A stretch of 44,051 nucleotides of DNA from a virus (lineage: Duplodnaviria; Heunggongvirae; Uroviricota; Caudoviricetes): the IMG/VR virus record IMGVR_UViG_3300045988_124839; one strand, given 5' to 3'. Below the pieces are notes generated by a model. That model made no database searches and had not been told where the DNA came from. It saw nothing but the letters and a program-made list of their open reading frames with translations. Position 1 is the first letter of the stretch. Each line of letters starts with the position of its first letter. The translations under genes were made by a program, and so were the position numbers. This document shows positions 3,314 to 40,464 of the stretch, in pieces.

Positions 3314-4057
3314 ATGACAGAGACAGAATCAGCGATTCTGGCGCATGCCCGGCGATGTGCGCCAGCGGAGTCGTGCGGCTTCGTGGTGAGAGCGCCGGAG
3401 GGGGAAAGATATTTCCCCTGCGTGAATATCTCCGGTGAGCCGGAGGATTATTTCCGGATGGCTCCGGAGGACTGGCTGCAGGCAGAGATGCAGGGTGAGA
3501 TTGTGGCACTGGTCCACAGTCATCCCGGTGGTCTGCCCTGGCTGAGTGAGGCTGACCGGCGGCTGCAGGTGCAGAGTGATTTGCCGTGGTGGCTGGTCTG
3601 CCGGGGGGCGATTCACAAGTTCCGCTGTGTGCCGCATCTCACCGGGCGGCGCTTTGAGTACGGGGTGACAGACTGTTACACACTGTTCCGGGATGCTTAC
3701 CATCTGGCGGGGATTGAGATGCCGGATTTTCATCGCGGGGATGACTGGTGGCGTCACGGTCAGAATCTCTATCTTGACAATATGGAGGCGACTGGTTTTT
3801 ACCGTGTCGCACTGACAGAGGCGCAGCCTGGCGACGTGCTGCTGTGCTGCTTTGGTTCATCGGTGCCGAATCATGCCGCCATTTACTGTGGTGATGGCGA
3901 GCTGCTGCACCATATTCCTGAACAACTGAGTAAACGAGAGAGGTATACCGACAAATGGCAGCGACGCACACACTCCCTCTGGCGTCACCGGGCATGGCGC
4001 GCATCTGCCTTTACGGGGATTTACAACGATTTGGCCGCCGCATCGACCTTCGTGTGA
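3314..4057 (+). CDS. K: tail tip assembly protein K (JAB/MPN-like HSHPGG motif)
   Basis: Lambda gpK-like sequence with HSHPGG metal-binding motif; start uncertain, an internal Met at 3458 would give a 199-aa product; 3' end overlaps I. Confidence 0.82.
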   Translation: MTETESAILAHARRCAPAESCGFVVRAPEGERYFPCVNISGEPEDYFRMAPEDWLQAEMQGEIVALVHSHPGGLPWLSEADRRLQVQSDLPWWLVCRGAIHKFRCVPHLTGRRFEYGVTDCYTLFRDAYHLAGIEMPDFHRGDDWWRHGQNLYLDNMEATGFYRVALTEAQPGDVLLCCFGSSVPNHAAIYCGDGELLHHIPEQLSKRERYTDKWQRRTHSLWRHRAWRASAFTGIYNDLAAASTFV

Positions 4058-12856: not shown

Positions 12857-12990
12857 AAAAAGGTGAGCTGTATATGCAACGGAGGAAGAAACCCCGTTGC
12901 TGGAAGCCTGGAAAAAGTATCGGGTGTTGTTGAATCGTGTTGATACATCACTATCTCCAGATATCGAGTGGCCAAGTCAACCATAAATCA

Positions 12991-13015
12991 ATATCCCCTG
13001 CAATGCAGGGGATAT
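12991..13015. terminator. bidirectional hairpin terminator at the 3' end of the sop operon
   Basis: Perfect inverted repeat ATATCCCCTGC-AAT-GCAGGGGATAT with T-rich flanks on both strands, 4 nt from the sopB stop. Confidence 0.65.
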
Positions 13016-13018
13016 TTC

Positions 13019-15586: not shown

Positions 15587-15628
15587 ACATAATTCCCCAT
15601 TATACGCGCGTATAATGGGGAATTATGT
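15587..15628. other. telRL: telRL-like telomere resolution site (42-bp perfect palindrome, protelomerase target)
   Basis: ACATAATTCCCCATTATACGCGCGTATAATGGGGAATTATGT is a perfect palindrome; core CCATTATACGCGCGTATAATGG matches the N15 telO core as recalled; 170 bp upstream of telN. Confidence 0.88.
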
Positions 15629-15798
15629 GCTGATCTTTAGAACAGAGTCAAGGAACAAATTTTGACGTTCCGATATTGTGTTTTTGTTTATTATCCGTTA
15701 TTATGTTCTGTTAGTTTATGACTAAGTTAACGCGTTATTAGTTATCTTATTCTCAAATTGTGTTACGATAATCCGAGCGGACAATCAGGAGAGGAAAG

Positions 15799-17706
15799 AT
15801 GAGCAAAGTAAAAATCGGTGAATTAATAAACTCACTTGTTAGCGATGTTGAGTCAATAGATAACTCTGACCGTCCTCAAGGGGAAAAAACAAAAAAAATA
15901 AAAGCTGTTGCATTAAAATTTAAAAATGCATTATTTAATGACAAGCGAAAGTTTAGGGGGAAAGGATTAGAAAAAAGAATTACAGCCAACACATTCAATG
16001 CCTATATGAGCAGGGCCAGAAAACGGTTTGATGATAAACTTCATCATAGCTTTGAAAAAAATATACATCGCCTATCTGAAAAGTATCCTTTATATAATGA
16101 GGAGCTATTATCATGGCTTTCTCTACCTGCTGCCGATATTCGCCAGAGAATGTCAGCTTTACAGGCAAAATTAAAATTAATTCTCCCTTTATCAGAAGAT
16201 TTATCTAATATCAGAATTGGTGATAACAAAAGTCATAATAAGTTATTAAAATTATCAAATAAATATAAAGAGTGGCAATTCGCCATTTCTGATTTAACTA
16301 GCGATAACTGGAAAGATAAGCGCGATTATTTATATAAATTACTACAGCAAGGATCTGCCTTACTTGAGGAGTTGAATCAGCTAAAAGTTAACCATGAGAT
16401 TCTCTATCATCTTCAACTAAGCCCTGCCGAACGCGCATCTATCCAGCAACGATGGGCAGACGTTCTGCACAATAAGAAACGTAACGTGGTGGTCATTGAT
16501 TACCCTAAATATATGCAAGCTATTTACGATATTATAAATAGCCCTGCTACATTAAATAATCTAAACACTCGTTCAGGTATGGCTCCTTTGGCATTTGCAC
16601 TTGCTGCATTGTCAGGAAGACGAATGATTGAGATTATGTATCAAGGTACATTTACTGTTTCTGGTAAGTATACCGTTGATTTTTTAGGCCAAGCAAAAAA
16701 AAGAACTTCTGATGATATAACCAGAAAAATATATACATTATGCGAAGCAAAAACATTTGTTTATTTAATAAATGTACTTCGCTCATGCCCAGCAGCATCT
16801 GATTTTGATGATGTCGTTAAAGGTTATGGAGATAACGACACACGCTCTGAAAACGGACGGATTAATGCCATATTAGCAAAGGCTTTTAACCCGTGGGTTA
16901 AATCATTTTTCAAAGATGACCGCCGTGTTTATAAAGATAGTCGTGCTATTTATGCCCGTATTGCGTATGAAATGTTTTTCCGCGTAGATCCTCGTTGGAA
17001 AAACGTAGATGAGGATGTTTTCTTTATGGAAATTTTAGGCCATGACGATGAAAACACTCAATTACACTATAAGCAATTCAAGCTGGCCAACTTCTCAAAG
17101 ACATGGAGGCCAAATACTGGAAACGAAAATACCAGGCTGGAAGCATTGCAGCAGCTTGATGACGAAATGCCAGGATTCGCCAGAGGAGATGCCGGAGTTC
17201 GTCTGCATAACACAGTTAAGCAGCTGGTAGAGCAGGACCCCTCTATAAAAATCACGAACAGCACTCTAAGAGCATTCAAATTTAGCCCTACAATGATTAG
17301 TCGATACCTGGAATTTGCTGCTGATGCTCTGGGGCAATTTGTTGGCGAAAATGGACAATGGCAGCTGAAAATAGATTCTCCAGAAATCGTTATGCCTGAC
17401 GAAGAAGAGCTGGAAGCAATACCTGAACAGACGGATGAATTATCAGAGGATGACGATCTGGATGACGACGAAATTGAGATAGAGGAAGAGGAAGAGGAAG
17501 AGGAAGAGGAAGAGAGCGTAGAAGAACAGCAACCGCCCGCGCCTTCTTCACCTGTATCTAAGCCGGTATTTAAGCCTGTGAGAAATATTGGTGATGGCTC
17601 ATACGTTGTTGAGTTTCATTATAATGGCCAGAATTATGCTTGGTCCGGCAGTGCAAACAGCCCTATATCAGCAATGCAGTTAGCATGGCTGACATATTTC
17701 GGATAA
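15799..17706 (+). CDS. telN: protelomerase TelN
   Basis: 635 aa; N-terminus MSKVKIGELIN...RPQG.KTK.IKA...KNALFNDKRKFRGKGL.KRITANTFNAYMSRARKRFDDKLHHSF and much of the body match N15 TelN as recalled; acidic Glu/Asp-rich C-terminal tract; RBS AGGAGAGGAAAG. Confidence 0.95.
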   Translation: MSKVKIGELINSLVSDVESIDNSDRPQGEKTKKIKAVALKFKNALFNDKRKFRGKGLEKRITANTFNAYMSRARKRFDDKLHHSFEKNIHRLSEKYPLYNEELLSWLSLPAADIRQRMSALQAKLKLILPLSEDLSNIRIGDNKSHNKLLKLSNKYKEWQFAISDLTSDNWKDKRDYLYKLLQQGSALLEELNQLKVNHEILYHLQLSPAERASIQQRWADVLHNKKRNVVVIDYPKYMQAIYDIINSPATLNNLNTRSGMAPLAFALAALSGRRMIEIMYQGTFTVSGKYTVDFLGQAKKRTSDDITRKIYTLCEAKTFVYLINVLRSCPAASDFDDVVKGYGDNDTRSENGRINAILAKAFNPWVKSFFKDDRRVYKDSRAIYARIAYEMFFRVDPRWKNVDEDVFFMEILGHDDENTQLHYKQFKLANFSKTWRPNTGNENTRLEALQQLDDEMPGFARGDAGVRLHNTVKQLVEQDPSIKITNSTLRAFKFSPTMISRYLEFAADALGQFVGENGQWQLKIDSPEIVMPDEEELEAIPEQTDELSEDDDLDDDEIEIEEEEEEEEEEESVEEQQPPAPSSPVSKPVFKPVRNIGDGSYVVEFHYNGQNYAWSGSANSPISAMQLAWLTYFG

Positions 17707-17717
17707 AGCATACGGTA

Positions 17718-17741
17718 AAGGCACCGAATTATCGGTGCCTT
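17718..17741. terminator. hairpin terminator between telN and the leftward genes
   Basis: AAGGCACCGA-ATTA-TCGGTGCCTT (10-bp stem) followed by GTTGTGTGG on the + strand. Confidence 0.6.
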
Positions 17742-17751
17742 GTTGTGTGGT

Positions 17752-17916
17752 CTACCTCGCCTGCCCCTTTTCGTCCTCATCCAACTTTCTGATGGCCGTA
17801 GAATCAATACCCGCCGCCATACACACATCAGATGCAACAAACCACGGTTCGCCGTTGATCATCACTACACGAACCTGATGCTCTTCCTGAAAGGAAAATA
17901 CTGCTAACGCGCTCAT
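17752..17916 (-). CDS. short BRO-N-like ORF (possible antirepressor N-terminal fragment, 54 aa)
   Basis: Hand translation MSALAVFSFQEEHQVRVVMINGEPWFVASDVCMAAGIDSTAIRKLDEDEKGQAR; GEPWFVA.DV core resembles BRO-N domains; GGAGG 4 nt before ATG; not in the ORF track because it is under 60 aa. Confidence 0.4.
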   Translation of the reverse strand: MSALAVFSFQEEHQVRVVMINGEPWFVASDVCMAAGIDSTAIRKLDEDEKGQAR

Positions 17917-18146
17917 TCAGCCTCCTTATCGTGCAGCAATTGCGACGAGAGCGATGCTGAATAACCCTGTGCTTCGTGTGTTAGCTCACACGCAATTTGA
18001 AGGAGTTTCCCTGCTTCTGAGAGATAAATCGACGCCTCACAACTGGAGATTGTTCGATGGGCTGATGATACGAGCGCATAGACCTGAGCCAGACGTTCAT
18101 CCAACGATTCCAGCAGGCCAACAGTGTTCATTTTTACCTGATTCAT
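17913..18146 (-). CDS. hypothetical protein (77 aa)
   Basis: ORF with GAGGTGG RBS; stop overlaps the start of the next ORF (ATGA). Confidence 0.4.
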   Translation of the reverse strand: MNQVKMNTVGLLESLDERLAQVYALVSSAHRTISSCEASIYLSEAGKLLQIACELTHEAQGYSASLSSQLLHDKEAE

Positions 18147-18683
18147 GCAGCCACCTCGCGCACCGGAATACGGGCAGACAATACCAGGACAAACCGGCTG
18201 GCAAACTGGCGACGAGCTTCCCGTTCAGATGACGCGATGGTGGAAAGATGATGGATGTGTGACTTTTTGTCTGTGCGAACGATTGCCGCAAATTTGAATT
18301 TGAACATGGTATGCACTCCGTTTAATTGGTCGTGCTACCACCAGAGTTCCTACGCTCTATATGGCGGTAGCCCAGACGGGGGTAGGAATACCGGTAAACG
18401 AAGAAACCGGCCAGCTAAAAGCTGCCCCATCTGAGCCACCATAAATTTGGTGTACGCAGATTTTACACACAAAAAAACACGCTGGCGCGTGTTGTGCGCT
18501 TCATTTACTCGGGTTCCTACGCCCGGCTACGGGATTTACCGTAGCGGAGTAAACTTTACCGTCAAAACGACGCGCACGTCAATAATTTGCAAAGACATTT
18601 TACCCCGTGACCAGTCACGGGGACAGGTGTTTTTATAGTTTGCTTGAACGAGTGATCAGAAGTTGATCGTTAATCAAAGGCCA

Positions 18684-18995
18684 TTACTGATTAAGAGATT
18701 GGAAATACCTAACTAACTTACCGGCATCATCACATTTTTCTTTATCTTCGTCCTTAACATAGCCGCGACAAAAGGCTGAATAAAATTTTGCATTTTCAGA
18801 AGCAAAAGCAGCCGTCGAAAGGAGCAGCTCTTTGCATGACTCTTTTGATGCAGCATCGGGATTATTTTTACATGCAAGCTCCGCTGATGAGTTAATAACA
18901 GAAATGCTATCTTCCTGGGCATAAACCGCAGCAGAAAAGGCAAAACATAAAACAAAAATAAAACTCTTCACTTTATCTCCTGTAACAGTCATCAC
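18684..18995 (-). CDS. small secreted cysteine-containing protein (signal peptide)
   Basis: N-terminal KVKSFIFVLCFAFSAAVYA-QED signal-peptidase I type signal; four Cys in the mature part; AT-rich gene. Confidence 0.5.
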   Translation of the reverse strand: MMTVTGDKVKSFIFVLCFAFSAAVYAQEDSISVINSSAELACKNNPDAASKESCKELLLSTAAFASENAKFYSAFCRGYVKDEDKEKCDDAGKLVRYFQSLNQ

Positions 18996-19727: not shown

Positions 19728-19919
19728 TTACTCCCCGTTCACCGAAAATTCACGATAGAAACGTTTCCACATACGATAAGTCTGCGCAAATTGTTCACCA
19801 CGAAACATCGCCTTCCTGGCCTTCATGTTTTCCTTGTGAGACTTTCGGTCTATGAACCAAAACCATAGATGGAACACACAAAGCAAGAGACACAAAGATA
19901 ATATCCAATCATTACCCAT
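19728..19919 (-). CDS. small hydrophobic protein (63 aa)
   Basis: Internal ATG at 19919 overlapping the repA stop; hydrophobic segment LSLCLLLCVFHLWFWFI. Confidence 0.35.
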   Translation of the reverse strand: MGNDWILSLCLLLCVFHLWFWFIDRKSHKENMKARKAMFRGEQFAQTYRMWKRFYREFSVNGE

Positions 19920-22900
19920 AGAAAGCGCCCTGCTCTTCGTAGCTGCATGAGCTATTCCCCGTAATGTATTCACGTAACCGCCGCAGCTCATTGCTGGAAA
20001 GGTGATCCATGAACTCTGTGAGGTACAGGGATGCAAACGTCATAGCTATGCTGGCTGATGACCATGATGACATAGTGGCCAACTCCTCACTGGAAAGCGC
20101 ACTCATCGCCCAGGACTCAGGTACAGCCACTGGCAACACGGCCAAAGCCTCAGAAATTACTGAATGAGGGGCGTTTTGAACCTGCTCGTTTGTGGATCGC
20201 GTTTTATCATCCATATATATATTGAGATCCAAATCGCGATCCATTTCGATGGCTGTCTTCTCGGCTTTACGCGTTTTTAGGGTTAGGCCATCTTTCTGAC
20301 GCTGAACAAGAATATCCAGCATAAATGCCGCTGATTCAGGCTCAACAAAACGCAAGGTTGGACGCTTATCGCCGTCTCTGCCGCGACGTTTACCTGTTTT
20401 AAGGCCAAGAGAGTCGCAAATGTTTTTAAACAACGCTTCCGGCACTTTAGGCTTCCCTTTTGGCGTCATAAAACCACCAATGTGCAGAACGTTATTCAAC
20501 AGGTCACGGCGTTCGGCTGTCATGAGGTTATCTCGAGCGAATTTGAGACGCTCCTGAGTCGCCTCGCCGGTCATAGTCTCAGGGTTGATACCGCAGTCGA
20601 TAAAGTACTGCCGGAGAGTTGCTGATTTAAGCGCATAGAAACCGCGCGCCCCGACTTCAACAGTAGGAGTAGCTTTTACCTTGTGATCGATTATTCCAGG
20701 GAATTTAGTTTTAAAGACATCATCAGCCTGCTCGCGAGTCATCGCGGTCACTACAAAATATTGCCACTGTCCCGCCTGACGGTATGCGTAGGTAAAATTG
20801 ATGGCTGCTTCTTCCCGGTCGTAACGACGAGCTGTTACCTCATCTAAAAGCATTGTTTCATAGCGGCGAATTTTGTCTCGAGCACCATCGAAATAGAATT
20901 TTAGCGTGCCTTCTTCAACCGGTAGTTTCAGTTCGTTTTCAATATCCCAGCGGACAAGTTTTGCCTGTTCTTCAAGCGTCAGCGCGCGTTTTTTTAGCAG
21001 TTCTTCACGCTCTGATTCTTGTGGAGTTTCTGTATTGAGGTGCAGATCCAGTGTCTGTTCCCACACAATATCCCGCGCTTCTTTACGCAGATCTTTACCG
21101 ATATCATTCGCAGCATAATCGGTGGCCAGCGGCGATACCTTATAACCGTCGCTGTGCATGATGCAGATCATGTTGCTGGCGTAGTCGTTACGCGCAGTCG
21201 CTTCAATTGCGGCTGCTTTAATTTTCATCCTGGTAAAGTCGGTATTGGCCACCCCCATTGATATACGGTCGCCATCGAAAACGACATCCGTCAGTTCACC
21301 GTTCATACCTGCGGTAGCAAGCAATGCCTGGGCGAATGCTCGTTCTATTTTTTGCGGGTCAGTTTCACGTTTTGCACGAGCTTTATCAAAGCCGATAATA
21401 AATTCTTTCGCTGTACGGTCGCGGCGTAGCATTTGCACTGCGTCGCTGGGTACAACTTCACCACAGAACATGCCGAAATGACGGTCAAAATGTTTTTGCT
21501 CAATCGACACGCCGGATGAAATAGACGGGCTATAAATCAGGCCGTCGTATTTTTTGACCATCTTTTTCGGTTGATTGGTAAATGCTTCAACTTCTGGCTC
21601 TGGTTTGTTTTTCTGGTTTACACACAGAAATTTCTTACCAGGAAAATGCATTCTCAGGGTGGCTGTCACATCTTCTGCAAAGGTGGAGCTGTCGGTGGCC
21701 AACATGATTTTTTCCCCATCCGATACAGCTTTCACCACCTCGGTCATGATGCGATCTTTTTCTGTATAAAAAACCCGGATTGGCTCACCTGTTTCGCGGT
21801 TGCGAACATCAACAGGTAATTCAATTACGTGGATCTGCAGCCATGCCGGTAAACCTAGTTCTTCACGGCGTTTCATAGCCAGTTCAGCCAGGTCAACCAG
21901 CAGATCGTTCGCATCAGCATCTACCATGATTGGGTGTTGTTCCGTTCTGGCCAGCGCGTCAATTAGCGTATTGAATACAGCCACCGGGTTTTCCATAGCC
22001 CGACCGGAAAGAACGGCACGTAGCCCTTGTGTGGCCTCGTCAAAGCCAAAATAGTCGTGCTGGCGCATCAACGGTTGCCAGCAGTTTTTAACAATCGAGT
22101 TTATGCAGATGGTCAGTTTACTGGCGTATGGAGCCATTTCCTGATAGCCAGGATCCTGATAGTGCAGGATATCGGCTTTTACACCTTTTCCTTCTGTCAT
22201 CATTTCCCACAGGCCACCAATAAGGGAGACACGGTGAGCAACAGAGATACCACGTTCTGAGCTATGCATTAACGGTCGTAACAATCCAGTAGATTTGCCG
22301 GAACCCATACCAGCACGGACGATGACTATCCCCTGTAGTGATTGCACGTACTTCAGGACATCATCGGTCATTACCGAAGTTTCAAAACGCTTATAGGTGA
22401 TATGTTGAGGGCGTTTATTGGGATCAGTTATGCGTTCGCTGAAAGAGCGCGGAGCCTGGGCAATACGGCACTTTTTATTCAGGCGACGGGCAATGTGGTC
22501 TTTTACCGTAGCGCGATAGATATTTTCCAGTCCCATTTCACGCAGAACGATGCAGAACATGTTAAATAAATCTGACGGACTGTTAGGAACCGGACAGGTT
22601 AGCATGCCAATATCAACCGCTCTCAGCAGCTCTTTGGCAAAAGTACGACGGTTATCCCGCTTAATTGTCTTCAGGCGGTTGAGCGTCAGAGATAGCAAAT
22701 CAGTACCGGTTTTCAGGCGGTTTGCTGTTGCAAATAGTTGACGTGCTGTTTCACGAAGTCCACGTAGTTTGTGCAGGTCGTTGAAGTCACTGCACTCCAT
22801 TTGCGGATCGTCTTCAAAAGTTGGATAGACGCAGCGGACATCGTTGAATTTCGATAAGATTTCATAGCCAGTCCGCAGGCCTGTATTCCCTTTTCCTTCT

Positions 22901-23907
22901 GTGGCAGATTTCCGGTCATTATCCAGTGCGCAGGTGATTTTTGCCGCCGGGTACATGTTTACCAGTTGTTCCACAACATGAACCATGTTGTTAGCGGATA
23001 CAGCGACAACCACAGCGTCAAAGCGTTTATCTTTTTTCGTGGCAAGCCAGATGGATGCACCAGTAGCAAAACCTTCTGTAACAGCGATGTTTTGCGCCCC
23101 TTTCAGCTCACCGATAACAAAGCAGGCACCGACGAAATCGCCGCTGGTTACTGCGCTGGTCTGGTATTTCCCACCTTGTTTGTCGATTCGCTGCCAACCC
23201 ACAATACGACCATCATAACGACCGTCCAGGTGAGCCAGAGGGATAGCCATATATGTGGTTGGCCCCCGGCTCCATTTCGCACTGTCGTGACTGGTCACGC
23301 GACGCACATCACATGAACTAAAAACGTCACGAATACCTTTTTTAATCGCATATGGCCATGAGCCGTCTTCAGCCGGAGCATGTTCCCACGCGCTGTGGAA
23401 TGCCAGCCATCCCAGCAAACGTTCATGGTCCATTTGGTTGTTTTTCAGGTCATTAATTCGTTTTTGTTCTTCACGGCGACGACGTGCTTCGGCCTGACGT
23501 TCTATTCTTTCCCGTTCTTCTTCCGGTTGTGCGACCACGGTCGCATTATTCCGTTGTTGCTCACGGCGATATTCAGAAAACAGGAAGGAGAAACCGCTCC
23601 ATGAGCCAGCATCGCTGCCTTTATGGACGAAGTTAATGAACGGGTAATCAATCCCTTTGCTGTGTTCCAGCCTGGAGTAAATTTCTACGCGTCCTTTCAG
23701 GCTCTTTTCGAGAGCTTCTGGAGATGTTTTATTGTATGAAGAGTAACGCTCACCCCCCCCGCGAGGGTTGAGTTGGATGTTGTCGGAACAGGCAGGCCAG
23801 TTGATACCAGCCATCTGTGCCAGCTCGGTTAGTTCATCCCGTGCTGCTTCAATTAGCGAGAACGGATCGCTGCCAAAGCGATCCGCATAGAAATCGTTTA
23901 ATGTCAT
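19912..23907 (-). CDS. repA: replication protein RepA (primase-helicase)
   Basis: 1331 aa; Walker A GMGSGKST; size and position (leftward, between telN and cB) as N15 RepA (about 1320 aa). Confidence 0.85.
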   Translation of the reverse strand: MTLNDFYADRFGSDPFSLIEAARDELTELAQMAGINWPACSDNIQLNPRGGGERYSSYNKTSPEALEKSLKGRVEIYSRLEHSKGIDYPFINFVHKGSDAGSWSGFSFLFSEYRREQQRNNATVVAQPEEERERIERQAEARRRREEQKRINDLKNNQMDHERLLGWLAFHSAWEHAPAEDGSWPYAIKKGIRDVFSSCDVRRVTSHDSAKWSRGPTTYMAIPLAHLDGRYDGRIVGWQRIDKQGGKYQTSAVTSGDFVGACFVIGELKGAQNIAVTEGFATGASIWLATKKDKRFDAVVVAVSANNMVHVVEQLVNMYPAAKITCALDNDRKSATEGKGNTGLRTGYEILSKFNDVRCVYPTFEDDPQMECSDFNDLHKLRGLRETARQLFATANRLKTGTDLLSLTLNRLKTIKRDNRRTFAKELLRAVDIGMLTCPVPNSPSDLFNMFCIVLREMGLENIYRATVKDHIARRLNKKCRIAQAPRSFSERITDPNKRPQHITYKRFETSVMTDDVLKYVQSLQGIVIVRAGMGSGKSTGLLRPLMHSSERGISVAHRVSLIGGLWEMMTEGKGVKADILHYQDPGYQEMAPYASKLTICINSIVKNCWQPLMRQHDYFGFDEATQGLRAVLSGRAMENPVAVFNTLIDALARTEQHPIMVDADANDLLVDLAELAMKRREELGLPAWLQIHVIELPVDVRNRETGEPIRVFYTEKDRIMTEVVKAVSDGEKIMLATDSSTFAEDVTATLRMHFPGKKFLCVNQKNKPEPEVEAFTNQPKKMVKKYDGLIYSPSISSGVSIEQKHFDRHFGMFCGEVVPSDAVQMLRRDRTAKEFIIGFDKARAKRETDPQKIERAFAQALLATAGMNGELTDVVFDGDRISMGVANTDFTRMKIKAAAIEATARNDYASNMICIMHSDGYKVSPLATDYAANDIGKDLRKEARDIVWEQTLDLHLNTETPQESEREELLKKRALTLEEQAKLVRWDIENELKLPVEEGTLKFYFDGARDKIRRYETMLLDEVTARRYDREEAAINFTYAYRQAGQWQYFVVTAMTREQADDVFKTKFPGIIDHKVKATPTVEVGARGFYALKSATLRQYFIDCGINPETMTGEATQERLKFARDNLMTAERRDLLNNVLHIGGFMTPKGKPKVPEALFKNICDSLGLKTGKRRGRDGDKRPTLRFVEPESAAFMLDILVQRQKDGLTLKTRKAEKTAIEMDRDLDLNIYMDDKTRSTNEQVQNAPHSVISEALAVLPVAVPESWAMSALSSEELATMSSWSSASIAMTFASLYLTEFMDHLSSNELRRLREYITGNSSCSYEEQGAFYG

Positions 23908-25769: not shown

Positions 25770-26015
25770 ATGTTCAGGAAACCGTCGAAGCCAGAATTAA
25801 GGTATTCGGGGGTAAGAAATGAATATGTTATCTGGTGTCCAACTTGTGGTTACAGGACACGACCAGATAGTAATAAGCAGTCTGTAATTGCCGATTGGTA
25901 TTTATCAAATCAGCCAGGTAATAAGCATATAGAAAATCTTTGGATTAAGCGTTACTTGGAAATCAGAGAGGGTGCGACCGTGGTCGCACAAGAAAATGAA
26001 AATAACGCCATTTAA
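25770..26015 (+). CDS. small zinc-ribbon-like protein
   Basis: From the internal ATG at 25770; CPTCGY motif; the 3' end contains centromere-like palindrome 1. Confidence 0.35.
   Translation: MFRKPSKPELRYSGVRNEYVIWCPTCGYRTRPDSNKQSVIADWYLSNQPGNKHIENLWIKRYLEIREGATVVAQENENNAI
25972..25989. other. SopB-binding-like centromere palindrome 1 (GTGCGACC-GT-GGTCGCAC)
   Basis: 8-bp inverted arms around a 2-bp centre, same architecture as the F sopC core TGGGACC-AC-GGTCCCA; one of four copies in the window. Confidence 0.7.
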
Positions 26016-29423: not shown

Positions 29424-29505
29424 AAATTGACCGTAAAGTTTGAGTTTTACCCTGTAATTTTATACAGTATAAATAACCTTTTTTAGTTAAATGGTATGAG
29501 ATTTA

Positions 29506-29709
29506 ATGTCTGAAGCAGCCGTATCAACTCTTGAACAACTCGATTCAAATTTAAGAGATATTGACGCCGTTCTGGATCTGGTTAGCGTCACCCTGGCTTC
29601 TCCAGAAGCCAGCCTACATATTGGTGAGGTTTCACGACTCATCAACATGTCGCGAGAGATTGCCCAGCATTGTCAGAAAACTATCGCTGTTGAGCGTTCA
29701 CATCATTGA
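29506..29709 (+). CDS. hypothetical protein (67 aa)
   Basis: ORF with weak RBS; AT-rich upstream region. Confidence 0.3.
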   Translation: MSEAAVSTLEQLDSNLRDIDAVLDLVSVTLASPEASLHIGEVSRLINMSREIAQHCQKTIAVERSHH

Positions 29710-30978: not shown

Positions 30979-30983
30979 AAGCT

Positions 30984-31001
30984 GTGCGACCACGGTCGCA
31001 C
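30984..31001. other. SopB-binding-like centromere palindrome 2 (GTGCGACC-AC-GGTCGCAC)
   Basis: Same 8-2-8 palindrome as site 1 with the centre inverted; about 20 bp upstream of a putative promoter. Confidence 0.7.
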
Positions 31002-31020
31002 AGCACAAAAACGAAAAAGC

Positions 31021-34193: not shown

Positions 34194-34213
34194 CAGGGCA
34201 TGTATTCAGGAGC

Positions 34214-34231
34214 GTGCGACCGTGGTCGCAC
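34214..34231. other. SopB-binding-like centromere palindrome 4 (GTGCGACC-GT-GGTCGCAC)
   Basis: Perfect copy of the site-1 sequence, 23 bp upstream of the cassette gene start. Confidence 0.7.
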
Positions 34232-34254
34232 GGTATCTTTGTCAGGAGGTTTTG

Positions 34255-35806: not shown

Positions 35807-35978
35807 GCGCTGTATCGTCGCCGTATTCCCGTATTAACAGAGACCGTAGCCCGACGGGGAACTCCTTCTGCGCGAGTGTGCGGGAATAATCAAAAACGAT
35901 GCACACCGGGTTTTTACCGCGTTTATGGTGCGCGATTTTGTCCCTCATAGTCGCCCGTCCGGTGCGATGGTGGAAGAA
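35807..35978. repeat. 172-bp direct repeat, copy B (adjacent to cos)
   Basis: Direct repeat of 34022-34193; ends about 70 bp upstream of the cosN-like sequence. Confidence 0.8.

Positions 35979-36783: not shown

Positions 36784-40464
<3,681 letters not shown>

Follow-up and report, generated by a model that had tools for sequence, protein, structure and literature searches.

Among the closest described counterparts of the gene studied here are N15 gene 30 and phiKO2 gp27, which belong to operons with the layout CA/C4 RNA, icd, antA and antB, with antB encoding a Bro-N N-terminus and converging with the protelomerase gene. The phiKO2 GenBank record labels the three proteins ‘similar to N15 icd’, ‘similar to antirepressor N15 AntA’ (76 aa) and ‘similar to auxiliary anti-repressor N15 AntB’ (260 aa). 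Two papers describe AntB as a protein of unelucidated function and place the start of N15 induction by SOS at antC, a gene separate from immA (PMC4488713, PMC10612081). In work on an N15-derived vector, genes 30-32 are referred to as ‘the antirepressor operon’, and AntA alone raises copy number (PMC2847241).

Bro-N genes that share the C4/isrK-like regulatory module also occur in other enterobacterial prophages, of the P1 immI and Gifsy-1 isrK types. Unlike the gene described below, these lie directly after C4, are full length and encode other C-terminal domains. We take P1 Ant and Gifsy AnrP to be members of this C4/isrK-controlled Bro-N set.

Here we examine a 54-codon open reading frame (ORF) in a 44,051-nucleotide stretch of viral DNA (IMG/VR record IMGVR_UViG_3300045988_124839), hereafter the window. 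The original prediction described a BRO-N-like ORF at the end of a leftward operon and offered two readings of it, a truncated remnant or a minimal antirepressor-like protein. The comparison with N15 that it suggested identifies the ORF as gene 30, that is, antB. We conclude that the allele in the window, antB', is very probably a deletion remnant of antB, the last immA gene of an N15-like telomere phage, and most likely non-functional.

The immA operon of the window

The window represents a telomere phage of E. coli that resembles N15 (Ravinvirus); over the region of interest, its identity is 95.5% to phage PhiR46_1 and 92% to YDC107_1. Its telRL palindrome is intact, so that the window shows the unresolved arrangement (virion or circular assembly) and not a hairpin-ended prophage. 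The features surrounding antB' are as follows.

15587-15628: telRL palindrome, 42 bp, intact
15799-17706, plus strand: telN protelomerase gene, convergent with antB'
17752-17916, minus strand: antB', a 54-codon truncated antB (antB codons 1-51 followed by QAR and stop)
17913-18146, minus strand: antA homologue, 77 aa, intact (phrog_6301, E = 1.7e-36; phrog_10889 ‘anti-repressor’); N15 gene 31, phiKO2 gp28
18143-18316, minus strand: icd-like gene; N15 gene 32, phiKO2 gp29 (PGAP calls a 165-nt version; also in PHROG)
18360-18446, minus strand: C4-type antisense RNA, the N15 CA RNA equivalent (73.6 bits against a gathering score of 45)
18472-18545, minus strand: isrK-like leader RNA with an intrinsic terminator (62.5 bits; stem at 18476-18493, then a T run)
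18506-18558, minus strand: a1/b1-type C4 target sequences (34.3 bits, below the gathering score of 46.7)
18553-18582, minus strand: sigma-70-like promoter candidate for immA (TTGACG-18-TAAAGT, a consensus match only)
19912-23907, minus strand: repA

The operon thus runs isrK-like RNA, C4-like RNA, icd, antA, antB, with antB' as its third gene. This is the organisation of P1 immI and N15 immA, in which a C4 RNA with an upstream leader and targets is followed by icd and ant genes. antB' overlaps the antA stop, converges with telN and lies 3' of the C4/CA RNA and icd, in synteny with N15 genes 29-32 and phiKO2 gp26-29; by its position in immA it is the equivalent of N15 gene 30 and phiKO2 gp27. 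The ORF is therefore the last gene of its operon, as had been proposed, but that operon is a separate immA under C4/CA RNA control and not the repA operon. The Bro-N match of the gene is confirmed (below), but antB itself is labelled only ‘auxiliary’ or its function is described as not elucidated, and the experimentally named antirepressor of immA is the upstream 77-aa AntA.

Several neighbouring features may be recorded here. PGAP calls an ‘ash family protein’ in related plasmids just 5' of icd, where the C4, isrK and a1/b1 RNAs lie in the window (18360-18558), and flags it as an incomplete pseudogene in three of them; PGAP may here have read RNA genes as protein-coding. At the position of N15 gene 33 lies an ORF of 103 aa (18684-18995, minus strand) whose N-terminus resembles a signal peptide, and in the nearly identical locus of PhiR46_1 the ORF at this position is annotated ‘Spackle exclusion protein’. 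The 3' end of telN (window ~17480-17560) encodes a poly-glutamate run (EEEEEEEEEEE) in the C-terminus of TelN; telN length varies among related plasmids, where the match to a 751-bp query spans 729-793 bp, and in p13TMH22-2 the gene is annotated as frameshifted. The longest palindrome of the window after telRL is a perfect 27-bp one with 13-bp arms at 12990-13016, AATATCCCCTGCA-A-TGCAGGGGATATT.

A separate LexA-controlled module

The SOS-related features of the window lie away from immA, in a region that also holds a set of dispersed palindromes.

29452-29467, plus strand: canonical LexA box, CTGTAATTTTATACAG
29506-29709, plus strand: antC-like ORF of 67 aa, intact, after the LexA box
25972-25989, 30981-31004 and 34213-34232: dispersed palindromes of the form GTGCGACC-NN-GGTCGCAC

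Canonical LexA boxes occur in the window at 1775 and 29452 only, and none was found at the immA promoter. The 67-aa ORF is homologous to an unannotated N15 ORF located just 3' of the LexA box at 39564-39579. It falls into the same PHROGs as AntA (phrog_6301, E = 1.8e-35; phrog_10889 ‘anti-repressor’), and BLASTP detected no pairwise similarity between the two. Judged by its position, its LexA box and the N15 literature, the ORF at 29506-29709 is probably antC, the SOS-controlled antirepressor (PMC4488713). We also considered the Bro-N protein itself as the SOS antirepressor AntC, in an antA-antB-antC operon, and rejected this assignment because immA consists of icd, antA and antB, and antC is separate (PMC4488713; phiKO2 annotation).

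Similar, though not identical, copies of the dispersed palindromes are present in N15 at 35930, 41123 and 45560. We presume that they are the scattered SopB centromere sites of N15-type plasmids.

A 735-bp deletion from antB into its 3'UTR

On the minus strand, positions 17752-17916 translate as MSALAVFSFQEEHQVRVVMINGEPWFVASDVCMAAGIDSTAIRKLDEDEKGQAR, in exact agreement with the ORF listing and with the earlier hand translation. The translation signals described for it are also present, and the upstream 77-aa ORF ends at 17913.

17916-17914, minus strand: ATG of antB', overlapping the TGA of the upstream 77-codon ORF as ATGA
17921-17925, minus strand: GGAGG ribosome-binding site, 4 nt 5' of the ATG and within the end of antA
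17764-17767, minus strand: deletion junction, with antB codons 50/51 joined at a GGG microhomology to DNA of the former 3'UTR
17752-17763, minus strand: codons 52-54 (Q A R) and TAG stop of antB', DNA that lies ~115 nt past the antB stop in full-length alleles
17718-17741: hairpin in the gap that separates the converging telN and antB' (10-bp stem, AAGGCACCGA-ATTA-TCGGTGCCTT), kept after the deletion

The 4 kb around antB' are overlapped by 47 ORFs of 30 aa or more, so that its length alone is not significant. A search with the Pfam Bro-N profile (PF02498) returned a match above the gathering score (E = 4.8e-7, 30.7 bits against 25.6), in line with the resemblance first noticed in the sequence. 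Residues 14-50 of antB' align with profile positions 1-41 of 96, about half the usual domain length as had been estimated, so that the ~96-position domain is incomplete; full-length AntB proteins match positions 1-96. Ten PHROG ‘anti-repressor’ families also match antB' (best E = 2.6e-18), each through its own N-terminal part. A single-sequence AlphaFold2 model of the peptide has a mean pLDDT of 59, a low confidence that makes it weak evidence. Given that the Bro-N threshold is passed with an incomplete domain, and that the C-terminal region is absent, we file the ORF as an antB remnant and not as a Bro-N family antirepressor.

The truncation can be seen directly against full-length alleles. 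Relative to YDC107_1, the window lacks 735 bp, comprising antB codons 52-258 and ~115 nt of 3'UTR. In BLASTN, window positions 15701-17767 align collinearly with sequence on one side of the missing segment, and positions 17765-18668 with that on the opposite side. Three bases, CCC (plus strand) or GGG (minus strand), are common to both alignments; comparison with pEC12401-3 as well as YDC107_1 served to map the junction. At its downstream end the deletion stops ~115 nt beyond the antB stop codon, leaving ~20 nt up to the hairpin shared with telN, and the Q-A-R-stop of antB' is therefore former 3'UTR. Reading of 15 short-allele loci gave the same junction in all 15, which indicates a single deletion event.

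At the protein level, antB' is continuous with the E. coli full-length AntB proteins (YDC107_1 AUO37525.1, 258 aa; P0034, P0035, P0037), which are encoded at the same locus by genes whose start overlaps antA likewise. Over residues 1-51 the identity is 51/51 to the 258-aa proteins P0034, P0035 and P0037 and 48/51 to the YDC107_1 protein. Beyond residue 51 the sequences part, with QAR* in antB' and LHLMQTPGG... in the full-length proteins, which continue for 207 further residues that complete Bro-N and add a highly conserved C-terminal part of ~155 aa. The full-length E. coli alleles also have a 23-bp palindrome and the ~115 nt of 3'UTR, both of which are absent from the window.

The hairpin at 17718-17741 (RNA fold -24.8 kcal/mol, z = -4.8) begins only 10 nt beyond the end of antB' and is the probable terminator common to telN and antB'; the phiKO2 record annotates the equivalent site as a bidirectional terminator. 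The deletion has thus left the translation signals, this terminator and the neighbouring genes intact. That the ORF might be a chance one with no relation to any gene, a thought invited by the abundance of short ORFs in the region, is refuted by the Pfam score, the PHROG matches and the 51/51 identity to full-length proteins.

Full-length AntB and its intragenic palindromes

Full-length AntB proteins have 257-264 aa. Bro-N occupies residues 14-102, and the C-terminal part beyond it is very conserved and has no Pfam match. PDB sequence searches with AntB as the query retrieved no solved relative. Residues 1-28 and 69-258 are nearly identical among alleles, and residues 29-68, in the middle of Bro-N, are hypervariable (columns ~29-72 of our alignment A1), a pattern that looks like cassette exchange or diversifying selection. 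The conserved residues 69-258, near-identical in N15, phiKO2 and E. coli alleles, are deleted in the window. N15 gp30 has 264 aa, whereas the window product stops at residue 51 plus three, and the N15-type hypervariable segment (residues 29-68) represents a different allele from that of the window.

Full-length Bro-N genes of the antB type contain, immediately 3' of the LDEDEK codons, a perfect 15-27-bp palindrome with TT-N-AA at its centre. It was located at the following positions, all outside the window.

3882-3904 in locus L002 (YDC107_1)
3386-3408 in locus L013
27681-27697 in N15
gene nt ~146-190 in loci L024-L101

The first base of this palindrome in full-length alleles is the upstream endpoint of the window deletion. 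Its sequence is GGGTCTGCATT-T-AATGCAGACCC in YDC107_1, CCTCGGTT-T-AACCGAGG in N15, and, with arms of up to 13 bp, GGGTGTAACTT-T-AAGTTACACCC or GGGTGGGTATT-C-AATACCCACCC in other alleles; in the CTATGTT-T-AACATAG allele the reading frame across the palindrome differs. The palindrome is also present in the Bro-N genes of further prophages, nearly all of these genes lying directly 3' of isrK and C4 RNAs, and almost all Bro-N genes retrieved with an AntB profile lie directly 3' of isrK-like and C4 RNAs.

The two arms covary. In 16 distinct sequences, aligned by the protein motif DEKG.....T[PL]GG alone and not by structure, 94% of cells pair (28-51% in slid controls), 5 of the 11 pairs change on both sides, and the 29 double-change cells are reached by none of 500 shuffles. 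The encoded peptides GLHLMQT, GVTLSYT, GGYSIPT and GLYSIQT correspond to reverse-complement codon pairs, which argues that the DNA symmetry dictates the protein and not the reverse. Arms of at least 7 bp occur at the palindrome site in 23 of 30 unique genes, against 20 of 406 control windows elsewhere in the same genes, and most of those 20 represent two further recurrent palindromes, at codons 12-18 and 235-242. The former has 10-bp arms, AACCACCCGG-T-CCGGGTGGTT, in locus L028 and phiKO2 (antB nt 34-54); the latter, also with 10-bp arms, reads TTTTGAACTG-G-CAGTTCAAAA (nt 705-725 in YDC107_1 antB, nt 711-731 in L024).

Among the sources examined, this palindrome is the sole element of the locus without a match, and no Rfam family matched the intragenic hairpin. 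A SopB centromere site was rejected, since the centromere-like sequences are those of the GTGCGACC..GGTCGCAC type, and the window lacks the antB palindrome, of which N15 has a single copy. An intrinsic terminator acting in the antisense direction was also rejected, as it fits the ...GAAAAG GG alleles only, the SMFNIG-type and AKFNLG-type alleles having no T run. The palindrome could be a hairpin or processing site in the RNA, the target of a dimeric protein co-evolving with Bro-N residues 29-68, or a functionless quasi-palindrome kept perfect by template-switch mutation.

Allele frequencies, lesions and constraint

The 54-aa ORF is already known and annotated in public databases; the term ‘unlisted’ was accurate for the ORF list first consulted, but not beyond it. 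The protein is RefSeq WP_001542490.1 (UniProt A0A8G9HWR4), ‘BRO-N domain-containing protein / BRO family protein’, annotated in every E. coli and Shigella sonnei plasmid opened, and an identical CDS in phage PhiR46_1 is XSB42742.1, ‘putative antirepressor’. The ORF is thus conserved in related phages. Both records have the same sequence at the same telN-antA position, in plasmid prophages of the N15 type from E. coli and Shigella sonnei, and they differ from our account only in that they do not state an origin by deletion from antB.

A homologue search with the 54-aa query returned short proteins only, and allele frequencies were accordingly taken from exact look-ups. The locus is present in 17 complete RefSeq E. 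coli genomes, always on plasmids, in the short form in 13 and the long form in 4; the split in PLSDB is ~17 short to 9 long. By contig count, antB' is the most common single allele of antB: at least 1000 contigs carry the exact 54-aa sequence, and the full-length alleles, of three types, are found on 430, ~350 and 244. A constant 46-nt spacing between telN and antB' would place the differences in match span among short forms inside telN.

Such an abundance counts against a mere remnant, as do the rarity of disrupted derivatives (51 aa on 2 contigs, 66 aa on a single contig, 34 aa on 2) and the retention of a good ribosome-binding site with translational coupling. The abundance would be explained if the stump were a selected, functional micro-protein, either a dominant-negative or decoy against the full-length Bro-N antirepressors of co-resident prophages or a modulator of AntA/CB, a reading that we nevertheless consider unlikely. 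In its favour, the ORF is intact in 15/15 loci read, the ATGA coupling is kept, and an independent truncation of another allele type (L016/L027), caused by a nonsense codon at residue 56 in the palindrome centre, yields a 55-aa product that ends at almost the same point. Two further sequences, P0006 and P0007, have the same QAR* end behind different N-termini, though the contigs concerned measure 537-610 bp, and both sequences may be assembly chimeras.

The wider set of lesions points the other way. A 19-nt deletion in the palindrome of P0009 leaves 59 aa, a 1-nt deletion beside it in P0003 gives 74 aa, and with the nonsense codon and the window deletion these make four independent lesions in or beside the codon-51 palindrome. 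It is plausible that this palindrome is a mutational hot spot, which would explain why truncations cluster near residues 51-58. Elsewhere in the gene, P0011 is an in-frame fusion of residues 1-35 with the last 26 (61 aa, 89 contigs), and there are also forms of 87 and 31 aa in which 28 residues are retained; the junctions of the 61-aa and 87-aa alleles appear to adjoin the codon-235 palindrome. With 28, 31 or 35 residues kept in these other lesions, there is no set length, and only the antB start region, which overlaps the antA stop, is always preserved.

Variation within the stump was examined for signs of constraint. There are five polymorphic DNA sites, all at third codon positions, and four of them also vary in full-length alleles; each of the five is either common to full-length alleles or synonymous, and all four gametes are seen for the pair of sites 18 and 60. 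The variants were thus imported by recombination and are uninformative on selection on the stump, and we rejected the third-position bias (5/5) as evidence of purifying selection for this reason. The density of variable sites is the same in the stump (5 in 165 nt) as in the next 160 nt downstream (6 in 160 nt). Among distinct amino-acid substitutions in the stump, 9/18 fall at positions invariant in full-length AntB, with 51% expected in the absence of constraint, compared with 0/5 over the same 51 residues in the full-length 258-aa cluster; this difference is marginal (Fisher p = 0.06) and rests on rare variants that may include sequencing errors. One stump lineage, on 148 contigs, carries Q10P and L45F. 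Invariant Bro-N positions are therefore substituted at the chance rate, which points, if marginally, to relaxed constraint and speaks against a micro-protein, as do the retention of less than half of the Bro-N domain and the low-confidence structure prediction. The minimal antirepressor-like protein of the original prediction is not supported.

A related proposal is that antB is a contingency locus, in which intragenic palindromes serve as breakpoints that recurrently switch the gene off, and the stump of ~51-55 residues is kept for a regulatory or decoy activity of its own. The centre codon of the palindrome has the form T-N-A, two of whose four variants are stop codons. We regard this proposal, too, as improbable; if true, loss of AntB would tune how readily plasmid prophages leave lysogeny.

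More doubtful still, and in our view very unlikely, is that the stump matters in cis only, its translation up to the terminator guarding the antA mRNA against Rho-dependent termination or decay, or helping to finish antA. The ATGA overlap with antA, the end of antB' 10 nt from the terminator hairpin and the presence of the antB start region in every deletion allele seen would all suit such a role, but the last is equally explained by the need for an intact antA stop, and the occurrence of ORFs of 31-87 codons shows that no specific arrangement is maintained.

Discussion

The remnant reading of antB' that we favour involves one illegitimate recombination at the GGG microhomology, which removed 735 bp, from antB codon 52, exactly at the 5' edge of the 23-bp perfect palindrome, to a point just after another small hairpin. 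What survives is the ribosome-binding site, the start overlapping the antA stop, 51 antB codons, three fortuitous codons with a stop, and the terminator shared with telN. Since these signals are retained, the stump is probably still co-transcribed and translated with antA once CA/C4 control of immA is relieved. Its product would be a peptide of ~6 kDa that, with only ~43% of Bro-N and none of the conserved 190-residue C-terminal part, is most likely inert. As antA and the LexA-boxed antC-like gene are both intact, the antirepressor circuitry known from N15 is independent of the stump. The allele may persist because antB is dispensable or mildly counter-selected in the plasmid-prophage state, the stump being too short and too recent for further decay.

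For annotation, this means that the ‘54-aa BRO-N protein’ found in well over 1000 E. coli and Shigella assemblies is a truncated antB allele and not a minimal antirepressor. For the biology of these elements, antB has been lost repeatedly and independently, and no such damage affects antA, icd, the C4 RNA or the antC-like gene under SOS control; this pattern suggests that a plasmid prophage can dispense with AntB or pays a mild cost for it. Of greater interest is a lead outside the window, in the covarying palindrome of C4-controlled Bro-N genes, which dictates the peptide encoded across it and marks the breakpoint of the deletion.
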